A program made the translations under genes and the position numbers. A stretch of DNA of 64,000 bases from Desulfatiglandales bacterium (GTDB lineage: Bacteria; Desulfobacterota; DSM-4660; Desulfatiglandales; Desulfatiglandaceae): NCBI GenBank assembly GCA_963662465.1, contig OY759599.1, positions 3,744,001 through 3,808,000 on the forward strand. The letters run 5' to 3'. The notes beneath the pieces are model-generated. The model did no database searches and was not told the DNA's origin. It saw nothing but the letters and a program-made list of their open reading frames with translations. Positions 41,355 to 63,621 of the stretch are shown here, one piece after another. Positions within the stretch are counted from its first letter, which is position 1, and every line of letters starts with the position of its first letter.

Positions 41355-41729
41355 CTAGTCACTGATCACTTCCTTTGCCTTGGCACTGATCCAGCCGCAC
41401 CAGGGACAGCCGGTGGTGATAAGATCCTCCAGTACAACCCTTTTTTCGCATTGGGGACAGTGCTCCTTGGCGATGACCGCGTCTTCCCAGGCGGGGGTTT
41501 TCAGACTGGTCCCCGAGGGAAATTCCAAACCGTATTTGGCGGCGGTTTCAAAGGACGCCAGCGCCGCCCTGATTTTGATGCCCAGCAGTTCAACGCCCAC
41601 CACCGATACGGTGATGTCCGCATTGATGACCAGGCCTTTGTCTAAAATTCTGTCGATGACGTCCGCCAGGCCGCCGGCCCTTTCGTCTCGGGAAGGTTCC
41701 ATGGCCATTGCGTTAGTTTCTCCCGCCAT
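41355..41729 (-). CDS. gvpJ: Gas vesicle protein J with C-terminal Zn ribbon
   Basis: LADVIDRILDKGLVINADI.VSV.GVELLGIKIRAALASFETAAKYGLEFP; CPQC-x13-CPWCGW. Confidence 0.9.
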   Translation of the reverse strand: MAGETNAMAMEPSRDERAGGLADVIDRILDKGLVINADITVSVVGVELLGIKIRAALASFETAAKYGLEFPSGTSLKTPAWEDAVIAKEHCPQCEKRVVLEDLITTGCPWCGWISAKAKEVISD

Positions 41730-42489
41730 TGCTTCCGGCGATGTGATTTTCTCTCACATGAACAACGCCCTTGCCGCTGCATTTGAGACAGGTCAGGCCG
41801 GTTCCCTGCTCGGTTCCCGATCCTTTACAGTCGCTGCACGGCGCAATAGGGGGGTGAACCGAAACAACGCCTTTGCCGCGGCATACGGGGCAAGTTCGTC
41901 CTGATTTTCGTTCCATGCCCCGGCCTTTGCAAAAAGCGCATGAAACGGCCGGAGGAGCGATGCCGACACTACCGCTTCCCCGGCAGATGGGACATTTGGC
42001 CCCCTTCTCTTTTTTCCCGGTTCCCCCGCAAAATCCGCATGCGTGGGTGTTTTCGGTCATCAGGCGTGTTCCGCCGTTTCCACCGGCCCTTCCCGACATG
42101 GTTCCATTCCCGTAGGTCATGGTGTTCCAACCCACCTCATCCTGGCCCGGTTTAAAAAAACTGTTTGGGGACTGGTTGGGGTTTGCCTTGAAGGTTCTGA
42201 AAGACCGCCATTGGAATTCTTCTCTCTGGAGACTTTTAAAGGGGACCCTCTGTTCCGTTTCGATGGTTCTTTCTTCATGGGACCAACCCAGCGCTTTTTT
42301 CCCCTTTGACGTGATTTTAAAGCGACCCCGGTCTTCCTGATCAAGATGTTTGCTTTTGATGAGGTTCGTACATAGAACCGTTGCGTAGTAAGCGTCAATC
42401 CCCAATTGTCGGCTCACCAGGCGAGTGGTTGTTTTGCCGTGTTCCCTGCTTACGGTCTTCAATGCCTTCATTTCGCTCCCTGAAACCAT
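41713..42489 (-). CDS. wHTH-like + DnaJ-type CxxCxGxG zinc finger protein
   Basis: Six CxxCxGxG repeats at the C-terminus; helical N-terminus ending GRFKITSKGKKALG. Confidence 0.78.
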   Translation of the reverse strand: MVSGSEMKALKTVSREHGKTTTRLVSRQLGIDAYYATVLCTNLIKSKHLDQEDRGRFKITSKGKKALGWSHEERTIETEQRVPFKSLQREEFQWRSFRTFKANPNQSPNSFFKPGQDEVGWNTMTYGNGTMSGRAGGNGGTRLMTENTHACGFCGGTGKKEKGAKCPICRGSGSVGIAPPAVSCAFCKGRGMERKSGRTCPVCRGKGVVSVHPPIAPCSDCKGSGTEQGTGLTCLKCSGKGVVHVRENHIAGSNGGRN

Positions 42490-48252: not shown

Positions 48253-49167
48253 CTAACAGATTTGATCGATTAATTCGTTGATGACCCTTTTAACCCTTTT
48301 CTGGCTTCCGGCGGTGCCGATGCGGCTGGTTTCGGATGATAGGATATCCATACAGGTCTGCCTGAAAATCGGGTCATTCTTGTCTACCGCCGCCTCGCGG
48401 ACCACCAGGGTTTTGGCGATCATGATACATCCCCGGATGGTTGGGGCGAACTCATAGACGTCGGATTCGCGCAATCCTCTCACGATGCGGACAATTTTCG
48501 TCGCATCCCCATCCAGCAGACCGGATTTGAACTCGGTGATGCGAATTTCCGTCTCTTCATCGAAATAGTCCACATCCAGGGTGATCATTCGGTCGCGAAG
48601 GGCGTCCTGACTTCGGTGAACCCCCGCATATTCTTCCGGATTGCTGGTGAAAATGGCTGTAAAATCAGGGTGGACCTTGAGATAATTCCCTTCTCCCTGT
48701 CTGGGGGCCGGCAGATCCAGCATCCTTTCCTGAAGCACCGACAGCAGAATGTTGTTGGCCTCGGGTCTGGTTCGGGTGAACTCATCATAAATGAGGGTAA
48801 ACCCGTTTTTACAGGCCACGGTGAGACGGTTGTCGGCCCATCTTTTCTGCATGTCCTCTTCAGTTTTCTTGACCGTGTGAATATAATTGTCCACCACTTT
48901 GCGTCTGTGAAAACCGGTCTCTCCGCCCACAAGGTCCGATGTAGAAAACTCCTCGTCCCCATGAATCATGACTACGGGTCGCCCGATCATGGCCGCCACA
49001 TGCATGGCCAGGGTGGTTTTGCCGGTTCCCGAGATGCCTCGAAAATGGATGGGAAAGCCCGCAGCGATATAGGCCATGGCTCTTTCCGCCATGTCCTGGA
49101 CATAGGGGGTTTCTACGAAGTTCGGCAGAGAGCGAGGCTCCAGAACCGTTGTACTGTTAGTTGACAT
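48253..49167 (-). CDS. gvpN: Gas vesicle AAA+ ATPase GvpN
   Basis: TTVLEP..NFVETP, GTGKTTLAMH, VVDNYIHTV.K, YDEFTR.RPEANN, FTSNPEEYAGVH..QDAL.DR motifs. Confidence 0.96.
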   Translation of the reverse strand: MSTNSTTVLEPRSLPNFVETPYVQDMAERAMAYIAAGFPIHFRGISGTGKTTLAMHVAAMIGRPVVMIHGDEEFSTSDLVGGETGFHRRKVVDNYIHTVKKTEEDMQKRWADNRLTVACKNGFTLIYDEFTRTRPEANNILLSVLQERMLDLPAPRQGEGNYLKVHPDFTAIFTSNPEEYAGVHRSQDALRDRMITLDVDYFDEETEIRITEFKSGLLDGDATKIVRIVRGLRESDVYEFAPTIRGCIMIAKTLVVREAAVDKNDPIFRQTCMDILSSETSRIGTAGSQKRVKRVINELIDQIC

Positions 49168-49254: not shown

Positions 49255-49623
49255 CTACTTTTTAGTAACCACGCCTTTGCCGCCACAGGTCAAACAGGGG
49301 AGGTATTGCCCCGGCTGTAAGCCTTTCCCTGCGCAATCAGGACATGTTTTCAGGGGTTTCACGGCTGAAACCACCCCTTTTCCGGCACAGACCGTACAAA
49401 CCATTCTTCGCTGGGGTTGGACCGCTGTGCCGTTGCAATAGGCGCACGGTCTAACCGCTCCGTATATGCTGATCCGTCCTTTTCCGCCACAAACCTGACA
49501 ACGGGAAGCGCCGTAGAGCAGTCCAAACGGGTCAATGCCGGTTCCCCGACAAAACGTACACGCCAGGGTGTTCTTTTCCTCAGTGGTCATGCTTGCTGAG
49601 TCGGTCATTGCACTTCCTTCCAT
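49255..49623 (-). CDS. Stand-alone DnaJ-type CxxCxGxG zinc finger protein
   Basis: Six CxxCxG(x)G-like repeats and no J-domain. Confidence 0.82.
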   Translation of the reverse strand: MEGSAMTDSASMTTEEKNTLACTFCRGTGIDPFGLLYGASRCQVCGGKGRISIYGAVRPCAYCNGTAVQPQRRMVCTVCAGKGVVSAVKPLKTCPDCAGKGLQPGQYLPCLTCGGKGVVTKK

Positions 49624-49699: not shown

Positions 49700-51244
49700 T
49701 TAAATCGCAAAGTATGTTAAGTCTTCTTTTTTGACTTCGCCATCATCCAGCAATTCTCTCATAACGGAGATCAGGGAACGCCAGTTTTCCACCCCCAGTT
49801 TTTCCGCAATTTCAACCATTCGCAGCCCATCCGGGGCATCCTTCAAAATGGCGACGATGTCACTGTGTGAGGTTTGCAAATTGATTTCAGCACCGTCGGT
49901 CTGGAAGGATTCTTCCGAGGTTACTTCCGCCTCCTTTTCCTCAGCATCTGTTTCTGACGACGCTTCGCCCCGGGGTTCTATGACGTTTTCTGTTGCTTCG
50001 ACTGGTGCTTCTTCGGTTTTCTTATCCTCGACAACCTTAACTTCCCTTTCCGGCGCCGACGCCGCTTTTTCGGGGGTGGTGAGGGTCATGGTTCCGGTGG
50101 AGGAACGTACGGCTGAAAGGATTTCGTGCCAGGCCCGGGCTGCTTCCGAACGATCCTTATTGAGCTCTCCCAGCATTTGCGTCACACTGGTGGACAGATT
50201 TGAGCTGAAATCGCGCAGGTTTGCTTTGAGCTCTTCGCCCTTTTCCTTCATGTCACGCACGACGGTTTCCAGTCGTTCCTTCTCACCGTTTTCCAGATCC
50301 GCCTTGAATTGAGCCAGTCCGGTAGTAAAGGATTCCAACTCGGACTTCAAAGTGCGCCACATCTCTTTTCGAGCGTTTTCGAAGTCGTTGATCATATTGC
50401 GGGTATCTCCCTTGAGATTCCCGATATGCTCGCGGCGGTCCGCTATTTCCCGGCCCATGGTCTCTTGTCGATCCGCCTCCGCTCGGTCCAGATCTGCTTT
50501 GAATCGGGCCAATTCGGAGGTAAAGGCATCCAGTTGCCCTTTCAAGTCCGCCCACATTTCTTTTCGCGCATTTGAAAAGGCTTTCAGCATATCCTGGGTG
50601 CCGCCGAGAATTCCCCGCAGATCCTGCTTCCGTTCACCGATTTCCGCCAGCGCTTCGGCCTTCCGGTTGCTTTCAGCTTGATCCAGGTTCCCCTTGAACT
50701 GTTTCAACATAGACATAAATCCGGACAATTCGTTTCTGAGGTTATCCCCCATTTCCTTGAGTTCAGTGCGGATCGTAGCGATACGTTCTTCGTTGGCGTT
50801 AACCATCGCATTTCTGAAATTCGCCAGTTCCGACGTGAAGTTCTGCAATCTGGATTTCAAATTTCCCCACATTTCCTGCCTGGCGCCTTCGAAGTCGTTG
50901 ATCAGGCTTCGGGTGTCATTGCGCAGACCTGAAATATATCTGCCGCGATCGGCGATTTCTTCTTGGGCTTCGTTCTTGCGATTTTTCTCCGCTTCATCCA
51001 GATCCGTTTTGAATCCGGCCAGTTGGGTGCTGAAGTCCTTCAAATCGGACCTCAGGGTATCGCCCATGTCTTTCAGTTCGGCCCGGACGGTGTCGGCGCG
51101 TTCTTTATTGGATTCCTCCAGATTGTTCCTGAAATCCGCCAGTTTTTCCGCTGTTTCCGTTTTCAGTTCCGAAATGCTTCGCATCCGTTCCTCGTATGCG
51201 CCCGCAATTTCTTCAGCCAGTCTTCTCAAATCATCTGCCAACAT
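49700..51244 (-). CDS. gvpC: GvpC-like helical repeat protein with acidic linker and C-terminal wHTH
   Basis: Repeats (AR.EMW..LK..L..FT..LA.F x3; ER..T....K..G..L...L..F x3); lies between gvpA and gvpN. ATG 51244 has an AGGAGG RBS. The gvpC symbol rests on position and repeat type. Confidence 0.65.
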   Translation of the reverse strand: MLADDLRRLAEEIAGAYEERMRSISELKTETAEKLADFRNNLEESNKERADTVRAELKDMGDTLRSDLKDFSTQLAGFKTDLDEAEKNRKNEAQEEIADRGRYISGLRNDTRSLINDFEGARQEMWGNLKSRLQNFTSELANFRNAMVNANEERIATIRTELKEMGDNLRNELSGFMSMLKQFKGNLDQAESNRKAEALAEIGERKQDLRGILGGTQDMLKAFSNARKEMWADLKGQLDAFTSELARFKADLDRAEADRQETMGREIADRREHIGNLKGDTRNMINDFENARKEMWRTLKSELESFTTGLAQFKADLENGEKERLETVVRDMKEKGEELKANLRDFSSNLSTSVTQMLGELNKDRSEAARAWHEILSAVRSSTGTMTLTTPEKAASAPEREVKVVEDKKTEEAPVEATENVIEPRGEASSETDAEEKEAEVTSEESFQTDGAEINLQTSHSDIVAILKDAPDGLRMVEIAEKLGVENWRSLISVMRELLDDGEVKKEDLTYFAI

Positions 51245-51275
51245 GACCACTCCTCCTTAAAATTTTGATTTTTTG

Positions 51276-51370
51276 AAGACATGCTTGAGATTCCCGTATT
51301 CACGGAAATGCGGTTTTGCGAAAATGAGGGTAAGCAAGCGTACACTCCATCGCATCCTCAAGGACATCTT
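51276..51370 (-). ncRNA. Candidate structured cis-regulatory RNA motif, copy 2
   Basis: GATGTCCTTGAG..CGCAAA..CTCAAGCATGTC; same architecture as 52250-52330; ends just before the gvpC-like RBS. Confidence 0.5.
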
Positions 51371-51492
51371 ATAAATTTCCGTTGGCGAATCCGGCGGGGA
51401 TATGAATGGCTCCGGCGCGGATTGGCAAAGGTTTAAATTTACGGTTTACGGTTGCCGATTTCAGCAAAGGCGAAAAATCTTTCGCCGCGACG

Positions 51493-52122
51493 TCAACCCG
51501 CTACCGCCGTCTGCCATTGACTTCGAACTCTTTCCCTCACCAGATCAAGGTCTTCCAGAAGCCGGCCAACCTGATTGTCTCGAACCCCTTGCTGAACTTT
51601 GAGGGATTTGAGCATGAGCTTAAAGTCTTTGAGTTTTACGGTTTCTCCCTTAAGCAGTAGTTTCTTGAGAGCTGTTTTCAACTCTTCCTGCTCCATCTGA
51701 ATGCGCTTCAGCGCCTGAACGATTCCGGTTTCCCGTTCTTTCTGCCTTTTCAGAATATCTTCCTTGATGATTTCCATATCGTCGAGATTTGGCCGGCCTC
51801 CGGAGACAATAACGTTCCGCAATCGACCGATCATCTCTTTTTCTTCCTTATGGAAATTTTGAAAAACCCTTTCCGCTTCCTCTTCCCTGGCGTTTCGTCT
51901 GGCCGTGAGCCCACTCATCATCCGGTCAAAATCCTTCTTTCGAAGACTTTCCGATTTGGCGAGGTTATCTTTCAATTGAACCATCATCTCTTGCAGTTCC
52001 GTATGAAAGCTTTCCAGGAAATGATAAGCCTGTTCCATGAGATTGTTTACAGTTTTGACGCGCATTTCATAGGAATCAATGATGCTGTTCGCCAGGTTTC
52101 TTAAGTTTTCTTCGGTTACCAC
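51493..52122 (-). CDS. Coiled-coil protein whose N-terminus resembles the GvpC-like protein
   Basis: GTG start with GAGG RBS; ENLRNLANSIIDSYEMRV versus DDLRRLAEEIAGAYEERM. Confidence 0.75.
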   Translation of the reverse strand: MVTEENLRNLANSIIDSYEMRVKTVNNLMEQAYHFLESFHTELQEMMVQLKDNLAKSESLRKKDFDRMMSGLTARRNAREEEAERVFQNFHKEEKEMIGRLRNVIVSGGRPNLDDMEIIKEDILKRQKERETGIVQALKRIQMEQEELKTALKKLLLKGETVKLKDFKLMLKSLKVQQGVRDNQVGRLLEDLDLVRERVRSQWQTAVAG

Positions 52123-52141
52123 TTTTTTTACCTCGTTAAAC

Positions 52142-52223
52142 AAAAAAAACCGCAAATAACTCAGACAATTTGGTCTACCCATACCAACAACGGGAAGGGA
52201 GCATTGTCAGACTTATTTACGGT
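52142..52223 (-). terminator. Long stem plus U8, terminator/attenuator downstream of the gvpA pair
   Basis: ACCGTAAATAAGTCTGACAAT / ATTGTCTGAGTTATTTGCGGT (18/21 Watson-Crick pairs) ending in a T8 run. Confidence 0.55.
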
Positions 52224-52249
52224 CTTCCAGTGGTCTGATGGAGATTTCA

Positions 52250-52330
52250 GATATGCCCAAGACTTTCCTGATGAAATCCTTTGCGTCGGGAGAGGGGTTC
52301 ATGGAACGCCTCTCGGATCTCAAGGATATC
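52250..52330 (-). ncRNA. Candidate structured cis-regulatory RNA motif, copy 1
   Basis: GATATCCTTGAG..CGCAAA..CTTGGGCATATC with internal GAGAGG/CCTCTC hairpin. Confidence 0.5.
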
Positions 52331-52369
52331 CGGCAATCTCCCTTCGATTCTAAATATGCTGCTTAAGAA

Positions 52370-52573
52370 TTACGCGGTCGCGGTAAGCCCCACGGCCTCG
52401 GCATATTTGAGGTATGTCTCAACGCCGGCAACCACGGCCCTTGCTTCGATGGCCAGCAGTTCAATTCCCACGAGAGAAACCCTTGCCCATGCGTCGACGA
52501 CCACGCCCTTATCCAAAATTCTGTCGACTACTTCAGCCAAACTTGCGGATGCCATTGATTTTTCCATTGCCAT
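52370..52573 (-). CDS. gvpA: Major gas vesicle structural protein GvpA (second copy)
   Basis: [63 protein letters not shown]. Confidence 0.98.
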
Positions 52574-52641
52574 GATGAATCTCCTTTCATAAATGAGTCA
52601 GGTATGTTGCGTTACGCCCGTTGTGGTACATTAATTGCTTA

Positions 52642-52845
52642 CTATGCGGTCGCGGTAAGTCCCACGGCCTCGGCATATTTGAGGTATGTCTCAACGCCGG
52701 CAACCACGGCCCTTGCTTCGATGGCCAGCAGTTCAATTCCCACGAGAGAAACCCTTGCCCATGCGTCGACGACCACGCCCTTATCTAAAATTCTGTCGAC
52801 CACTTCAGCCAAACTTGCGGATGCCATTGATTTTTCCATTGCCAT
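52642..52845 (-). CDS. gvpA: Major gas vesicle structural protein GvpA (first copy)
   Basis: Protein identical to 52370-52573. Confidence 0.98.
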
Positions 52846-62532: not shown

Positions 62533-63621
62533 TCAATGCTTGCCCGTTGGCATTTTTATTTCCAGCATGCCATTCTTATAGGACCAAGTCATCTGATCGG
62601 CAGTTGCTTCGCGGGAAAGAAGAATTTCTTTCTGGTATTTTCGGTTGAGCCCGTCAGCAGTAATATTCAGGATGTCTCCCTTGATTTCGATGTGGACATC
62701 CTTTTCATCGATCCCGGGCATTTCAGCCACCACATTGATTTCTTCCGGTTCATCAAAGACGTCGATGATGGGTTCGCGCATCTCTTCCACCACCGGGCCC
62801 TTGGGTGTCTTTTTAATCGTCTTCTTAATATTCCCGAAAGGCTGAACCGATGGCCTGCCGTTCGCCATGGTGCCCACCCGGACACCGTAAACACCTTTCA
62901 GATCCTGGAGTCCCTTGATTTTATCAAGGCCACTGAAATCAAATTCTCCCGATTTAGATAATCCTTCGCCCTTTTCCGCCAGTTTTGACGCCGCTTCAAT
63001 CAAGTCTCCCAGCCCTTTAAAAAGGCCGCCAAGTCCAAAGCCCGCATCCACTTTTTTTTCATCCATGTCCGTTCCCTCCTGCTTAGTGTCTGTTTGTTGC
63101 TTATGGGTTATTTCCCAAACCCCTTCTTTTTCCGCACAGTTCAGATCGTTTGCTTCAAGAATCGCTTTGAGTCCCTTGACAAGTCCATATCCGGCCAAAC
63201 TTGAAAGAACTGGGACAGCGCTCACGACGGATGTGGATAGGTCCAATGATGCGCTCGCGATGGTTCCCAGCCCGGCCAGAATGCCCGAAGGCGTAAGGGC
63301 CTTCATCATATGGGTATTGATGTCATTAGCAAAATCATCAGCGTTTTCCCCGATTTCAGTCATGAACAGCGCGAATCGACCCCTGTCTAATTGAGAAAGT
63401 TCTCGAAATTTGGATAGACCGATCAGTTGAATGGCTTTGAGTCGATTTAAAAGGTCTTCCGACGGGATGCTTTGTCCCGCTTCGATCCTCATGACCGTGC
63501 TTCTCGATACGCCGAGTGTTTTGGCCAGGTCCGCCATGGACATGCTCCCGAACCGCTGCCGTATTTCTTTCAGGGTTATGCCACAGTTGTCACGCGTTAC
63601 CTTTTGGGGCATTTCTTTCAT
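62533..63621 (-). CDS. XRE-type HTH fused to an Hsp20 (GvpH-like, archaeal-type) domain
   Basis: LKEIRQRFGSMSMADLAKTLGVSRSTVMRIEAG; C-terminal GVYG.RV..PFGNI..REPIIDVFDE..VAEMPG..YKNGMLEIK. Confidence 0.85.
   Translation of the reverse strand: MKEMPQKVTRDNCGITLKEIRQRFGSMSMADLAKTLGVSRSTVMRIEAGQSIPSEDLLNRLKAIQLIGLSKFRELSQLDRGRFALFMTEIGENADDFANDINTHMMKALTPSGILAGLGTIASASLDLSTSVVSAVPVLSSLAGYGLVKGLKAILEANDLNCAEKEGVWEITHKQQTDTKQEGTDMDEKKVDAGFGLGGLFKGLGDLIEAASKLAEKGEGLSKSGEFDFSGLDKIKGLQDLKGVYGVRVGTMANGRPSVQPFGNIKKTIKKTPKGPVVEEMREPIIDVFDEPEEINVVAEMPGIDEKDVHIEIKGDILNITADGLNRKYQKEILLSREATADQMTWSYKNGMLEIKMPTGKH

Follow-up and report, generated by a model that had tools for sequence, protein, structure and literature searches.

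A structured RNA with paired pyrimidine·C mismatches in one type of gas-vesicle operon: an apparently undescribed family and a possible protein-binding leader

The gas-vesicle (gvp) operon of a Desulfatiglandales bacterium, contained in the 64,000-nucleotide stretch of DNA analysed here (the window), carries two copies of a structured RNA motif whose conserved core is built from the helices P1 and P2, both interrupted by a C·C or U·C mismatch. Sequence comparison indicates that the motif represents a real family of cis-regulatory RNAs, apparently undescribed, specific to one type of gas-vesicle cluster and placed in no Rfam family. Its structure, its conservation, its gvp-only context and the existence of two mutually exclusive folds are supported by computation. 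As to function, we favour, with a probability of roughly 0.55, a two-site protein-binding mRNA leader that gives negative feedback on the accessory gvp genes; that a protein binds, which protein it is, whether control is negative and what copy 2 does are what we infer. The first-pass annotation of this DNA had proposed a new cis-regulatory structured RNA of the gvp operon, a proposal now backed by the lack of an Rfam match, by homologues, covariation and gvp-only context, and by a conserved terminator/antiterminator pair; it did not extend to the antiterminator, to the mismatch conserved in P2 or to a hairpin upstream of copy 2.

Most knowledge of how GvpA is balanced against the accessory proteins concerns promoter regulators and mRNA stability, in work on haloarchaea, cyanobacteria and Serratia. 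For haloarchaea, control of the gvp ratio by mRNA stability is described in PMC4390858. A conserved, switchable RNA family would add a layer of post-initiation control in anaerobes whose gas vesicles have been little studied. The RNA stands between the shell gene gvpA and the accessory genes, and the stop/read-through switch to which one copy is apparently coupled suggests that cells tune the genes of a flotation organelle at the RNA level. The RNA is short and directly testable, two candidate binders can be named, and the element may provide a feedback part for engineered gas-vesicle expression.

The operon lies on the minus strand, as do all window features below unless stated otherwise, and runs in the order two gvpA genes, copy 1, terminator, Orf209, copy 2, a gene for a 514-aa GvpC-like protein, a zinc-finger gene and gvpN. 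The first gvpA (52642..52845, 67 aa) and the second (52370..52573, directly upstream of the leader, with matches to Pfam PF00741 and NCBIfam NF006874 above cut-off) encode identical proteins. This tandem pair (52370-52845) is 98% identical over 218 nt including the ribosome-binding site (RBS), which suggests a recent duplication or conversion. The core of copy 1 occupies 52250..52330 (70.8 bits against the covariance model), exactly as first annotated; that of copy 2, with a C·C mismatch in P1 and U·C in P2, occupies 51278..51368 (44.1 bits), the earlier span of 51370-51276 having the strand right and two flanking bases too many on each side. By regular expression and covariance model alike, these are the only two copies in the 8.16-Mb genome. 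A mobile palindrome of the REP or MITE type was rejected, there being two copies, both in the gvp operon, and not many dispersed ones.

In both window copies the closing stem consists of 11 pairs and one C·C mismatch; the shared mismatch had been noted correctly, within a helix given as 12 bp. The minus-strand folds are more stable than those of shuffled sequences (z -2.87 for copy 1 and -2.59 for copy 2), with weaker values on the plus strand (-1.07 and -1.86). Folded in isolation, copy 1 adopts a different register at its base, and the stem as described emerges in the folded full leader. The P1/P2 structure was set by hand and tested by pair counts on 50 aligned copies, where 92% of 1096 cells were paired, compared with 37-55% in slid controls, and double changes occurred in 84 cells at 12 of the 22 pairs. 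None of 500 shuffles matched the covariation score, and 47 of 500 matched the number of double-change pairs. RNAalifold on a MAFFT alignment found the outer helix P1 alone and did not recover P2. On a tree of 45 Orf209 proteins, we counted at least 15 switches between Watson-Crick pair types in copy 1 and at least five in copy 2.

A structural parse gave 92 candidates, of which ten were removed by eye (nine chance parses and one misparse), leaving 82 copies; it demands both helices and so misses degenerate copies, copy 2 of the window among them. Of the 82, 62 have C·C and 20 have C·U as the P1 mismatch; for the P2 mismatch the figures are 52 with C·C and 30 with U·C. Spacing between the mismatches is 15-17 nt in every one of the 82 copies, and 16 nt in 69; the 3' linker, in contrast, ranges from 10 to 43 nt and the loop from 4 to 21 nt. 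We looked for the conserved unpaired nucleotides of a binding pocket and found that junction and loop vary in length and sequence, with only the mismatch pyrimidines kept. Details first read as shared features did not hold up: the CGCAAA bulge occurs in 4 of the 82 copies, and a genome of the same genus already has a changed version in its copy 1, while the additional inner helix and the 3' hairpin embellish the variable linker in certain lineages only. Read outward from the junction, both helices present a purine-rich strand ending in G, then the mismatch, then a purine, forming a pseudo-dyad. Fixed mismatch spacing combined with a free linker and loop is, we infer, the pattern of a protein site in the helix groove and not of a pocket. 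G·U cells far outnumber A·C cells (219 versus 35 in the 82 parsed copies), so that this bias, together with the covariation, supports an RNA on the mRNA strand.

Using an alignment of Orf209, we retrieved 29 loci from GTDB genomes, assigned to Desulfatiglandales, Desulfobacteraceae, Syntrophaceae, Ca. Desulfaltia, Geopsychrobacter, unclassified Deltaproteobacteria, one Actinomycetota metagenome-assembled genome (MAG) and one Patescibacteria MAG. Copy 1 is present in all 27 loci of this set with sequence at that position. Copy 2 is present in 23 of 27, once without P2, and missing in four; two contigs end too early. A scan of metagenomes by pattern, independent of any gene, gave at least 123 loci. 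Among the 123 matches listed, 51 score at least 30 bits and every one of these carries gvpA, Orf209 or GvpC-like sequence; the other 72 score below 20 bits and carry none of the three. Homologues, with compensatory changes, lie beside gvp genes in many anaerobes, mostly Desulfobacterota. Of 150 genomes of the phylum searched with the model, two had strong matches, at gvp loci already in the set, and one had a weak match inside an open reading frame. Weak matches outside gvp loci (22-27 bits; L044, L232 and L233) were dismissed as chance because they lack the P2 complement; that in L044 lies in an open reading frame, and those in L232 and L233 read like coding sequence. Five other gvp regions, from Nostoc, Octadecabacter, Thiodictyon, Halobacterium and Methylocella, gave no model match better than E 0.88. 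Searches of plasmids and phages with the leader (blastn), and of plasmids with Orf209 (tblastn), returned no matches.

Genes for gas vesicles occur in 34 of 400 genomes of the phylum (Desulfobacterota), and we compared 40 cluster regions from 33 gvp-bearing genomes plus two loci already in the set. The Orf209 type accounts for nine clusters, of which six contain the motif (one on a contig that stops before Orf209), two have only a P1-like stem with the same mismatch (L179 and L201), and one, L174, has nothing clear; the last three give no model match. None of the 19 clusters without a full Orf209 has a model match at E <1, and six further clusters were uninformative. Among the 34 gvp-bearing Desulfobacterota genomes the motif was found only in Orf209-type clusters, where the groups compared are lineages and not independent trials; shared descent of one cluster type may explain the co-occurrence of motif and Orf209. 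In L179 (4472-4610) and L201 (4668-4800) the RNA is a variant: the mismatch site of P1 is retained, and a second C·C, in a basal extension, replaces P2. Another locus, L063 (1126-2525), has the order gvpA-motif-orf209-gvpA-motif, with a winged helix-turn-helix (wHTH) protein upstream of gvpA. In L025, titled Patescibacteria, copy 2 lacks P2 and copy 1 is identical to that of the Desulfobacteraceae locus L036, for which reason the contig is probably misbinned.

Searched against Rfam 15, both copies were free of matches except for a tmRNA match on the plus strand, at 8.5 bits against a cut-off of 47, in line with the initial impression that this is no known riboswitch. Ten further loci, nine of them motif-bearing, gave one unrelated match (E 0.84). 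The motif is not described in the literature searched, which excluded the supplements of PMC11109978 and PMC5737381, where it could be contained. The PMC8632094 supplement searched and the main text of bioRxiv 10.64898/2026.10.21.760802 do not mention gvp; nor does the main text of PMC11109978, which defines a class of 'protein binding candidate' RNAs. The presence of gvp genes in anaerobic Actinobacteria is noted in PMC7325909.

Copy 1 appears to sit in an attenuator with mutually exclusive terminator and antiterminator. The strand at 52334..52345 has two pairing partners: 52240..52246, with which it extends the motif as a basal helix, P0, and 52194..52206, with which it forms an antiterminator overlapping the loop of the terminator and the top of its 5' arm. 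The terminator-like stem seen after copy 1 in the first reading is a real intrinsic terminator hairpin with a U tract (52142..52223; z -4.89 by folding), missed by a simple scan. An intrinsic terminator pattern follows 40 of 48 distinct first-position leaders, the other eight having no terminator match; 39 of the 40 could be folded. Across 25 leaders, P0 is paired in 97% of cells, with changes of the G·U type only, and the terminator in 94%, with compensatory changes at 7 of 19 pairs. The antiterminator is paired in 95% of cells although its 3' arm lies mostly within an otherwise variable loop; its covariation taken alone is not significant, 19-79 of 500 shuffles scoring as high for four of five measures and 426 of 500 for the fifth. 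In leaders cut where the antiterminator is just complete, that fold is favoured in 32 of 39. Three of the seven exceptions look like register slips of the script, and others (L030, L033 and L039), from one clade, have a truly degenerate antiterminator. At full length, the minimum-energy fold of the window leader is P0 plus terminator, and in all 39 leaders the full-length minimum is lower in energy than a fold constrained to contain the antiterminator. Imposing P0 carries a median cost of 4.7 kcal/mol (37 leaders). Since the cut leaders favour the antiterminator and holding P0 carries a cost, equilibrium folding suggests read-through by default, and anything that held the base of the motif would cause termination.

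In several divergent loci the core follows directly on the gvpA stop codon with no terminator seen, and in L023-L025 the 3' arm of the terminator is displaced or lost. In one metatranscriptome, contigs from related organisms cover the region, one of them running from gvpA into the terminator loop; such contigs give neither transcript ends nor levels.

At the second position the motif stands before a genuine RBS, as had been suggested: the Shine-Dalgarno sequence of the GvpC-like gene lies at 51252..51258. From motif end to start codon the distance is 25-37 nt in 20 of 26 second-position copies and about 30 nt in the window. Comparison of these 26 copies revealed an additional upstream hairpin (51385..51426 in the window) with a third mismatch, C·C in 25 of them, and joined to P1 by a linker of exactly 15 nt in 23; its helix sequence, as we read it, is common with P0 in a permuted connection. 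No conserved switch was found at this position, and steric repression of translation by copy 2 is conjecture. P1 has an invariant 5' strand complementary to a Shine-Dalgarno sequence, so control may instead be of the opposite sign.

The most likely binder is Orf209 (51493..52122), an uncharacterised 209-aa protein encoded just downstream of copy 1. The structure model predicts four long helices (pLDDT 81), and the two halves are homologous by HHalign (probability 97.8%), pointing to an internal duplication, with a conserved basic turn motif in each. This two-fold design suggests a fit to the two-site RNA. Orf209 belongs to no Pfam or NCBIfam family; fold searches returned generic helical bundles only and no known RNA-binding fold, the Atlas matches being unnamed clusters, and its net charge is near zero. 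The second candidate is the predicted, conserved winged helix at the C-terminus (about 49703-49870) of the GvpC-like helical-repeat protein (49700..51244), a domain that is sometimes a separate gene. That protein matches Nostoc GvpC weakly (E 9e-6 pairwise) and resembles Orf209 at its N-terminus, the genes downstream of the two copies being weakly paralogous. The winged helix belongs to an unnamed family with an invariant WR motif and 432 representatives at E up to 0.001, whose members are fused to GvpC-like proteins or stand alone in gvp clusters (the window; L107 and L065, upstream of gvpA; L063, 902-1075). Fold comparison places it equally close to Z-alpha, MarR and SelB-like domains and points to no function, and the domain is acidic, with a mean net charge of -5. 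No copy of it was found in two genomes that are 100% complete and carry the full motif, and one cluster without the motif has it, which weakens it as a universal binder; because it does not always co-occur with the motif, we rank it second to Orf209. A small point in its favour is that the two loci with the reduced RNA also have an altered recognition helix.

We propose that the leader would bind a protein at two pseudo-symmetric sites, short helices that each carry a pyrimidine·C mismatch and are spaced by about 16 nt. After gvpA, without bound protein, the 5' switch strand would invade the terminator and RNA polymerase would continue into the accessory genes; with protein bound, P0 would be held, the terminator would form and only gvpA mRNA would be made, its 3' end also capped by the fold. 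At the second position, the same site with its added hairpin would sterically block translation of the GvpC-like gene beside the RBS. Most likely encoded downstream, the binder, with Orf209 as first candidate and the winged helix as second, would close a negative feedback loop, and tuning of GvpA against accessory proteins is a plausible outcome. More tentatively, and with considerable doubt, Orf209 could be a GvpC-like helical-repeat protein with a second function in attenuation, binding RNA through two basic helix-turn tips that read the two mismatch sites: growing vesicles would absorb it and relieve attenuation, and free Orf209 would turn the accessory genes off. If true, the assembly state of a protein organelle would feed back directly at the RNA level through a new RNA-binding fold.

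In TRAP, PyrR and ANTAR leaders, a trans factor chooses between mutually exclusive terminator and antiterminator, and ANTAR proteins read two repeated RNA sites. The gvp leader likewise has mutually exclusive folds and a presumed trans factor, but it contains no triplet repeats or paired hexaloop hairpins, its sites being mismatches inside stacked helices. Zinc-finger proteins of the operon match anti-TRAP only below cut-off and also occur in motif-free clusters. Autogenous protein-binding leaders, such as those of ribosomal proteins and the 'protein binding candidate' class (as defined in PMC11109978), similarly place structured RNA upstream of a possible binder gene; they too are conserved in helices and mismatches and use a terminator or the RBS as platform. 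Unlike these, the present leader has no Rfam leader match, its operon encodes a protein organelle and its candidate binder has no known RNA-binding fold.

A fold that binds no ligand, stabilising gvpA mRNA at its 3' end and the message downstream at its 5' end while its competing helices set a fixed kinetic read-through and a high ratio of GvpA to accessory proteins, is an unlikely alternative. It has a precedent in the stem-loop between gvpA and gvpC of Halobacterium, which according to PMC4390858 stabilises gvpA mRNA without terminating, and it would suit the divergent loci in which no terminator was seen. That stem-loop shares with ours its position after gvpA and its apparent purpose, much gvpA and little downstream message; it is described there as a stabiliser, not a switch. 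Neither the Halobacterium nor the Nostoc gvp region matches our model, and a stabiliser has no need of mismatches whose identity is invariant and whose spacing is fixed at 16 nt, or of a third hairpin placed exactly 15 nt away. Less probable is a riboswitch in which a small molecule or ion on the P1/P2 unit would hold P0 and terminate transcription of the gas-vesicle assembly genes. The terminator/antiterminator is of riboswitch type with a ligand-sized energy gap, the basal helix of an aptamer-like domain competes with the antiterminator as in transcription-off riboswitches, there are two platform types, and the motif spans several lineages including the MAG labelled Actinomycetota. Against this, Rfam gives no riboswitch match, junction and loops are not conserved, and the motif is seen at one gene neighbourhood only. 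The U·C replacements (20 of 82 in P1, 30 of 82 in P2) also speak against a pH sensor that works by protonation of C·C. With its variable junction, and with conservation residing in helices and mismatches, the motif is less likely to be a metabolite riboswitch than a protein-binding site.

We consider more doubtful again a processing site at which a housekeeping dimeric nuclease such as RNase III would cut the polycistronic gvp mRNA into pieces of unequal stability. A long irregular duplex with two pseudo-symmetric determinants at a fixed distance suits a dimeric enzyme, and the element lies between genes needed in different amounts; yet cleavage leaves the terminator/antiterminator unexplained, no similar site was found elsewhere in the genome with the model, and the motif is confined to one gvp cluster type. 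The first-pass annotation had kept a decayed duplication scar in reserve. The unit probably did arise by duplication, given the weakly paralogous downstream genes, but homologues in many genomes, conserved with compensation, refute decay. A mobile palindrome is countered by only two copies per genome, and a DNA operator by the G·U excess and by arms that differ systematically; scar, mobile palindrome and operator together strike us as very improbable.

Beyond the core motif, REP-like palindromes and short tandem repeats occur in intergenic regions of L003, L004/L014, L008 and L023-L025, and small AbrB-like genes follow gvpN in L057 and L063. An Rfam match to L31-Firmicutes within the window's gvpN coding sequence (49080-49105) is below threshold (E 0.007) and probably due to chance. 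The operon encodes two CXXCXGXG zinc-finger proteins (49255-49623 and 41713-42489) with sub-threshold matches to anti-TRAP and DnaJ, the longer of which may have an N-terminal winged helix. Lastly, an Xre-type helix-turn-helix fused to an Hsp20-like domain (GvpH-like) is encoded upstream of the gvp cluster (62533-63621).
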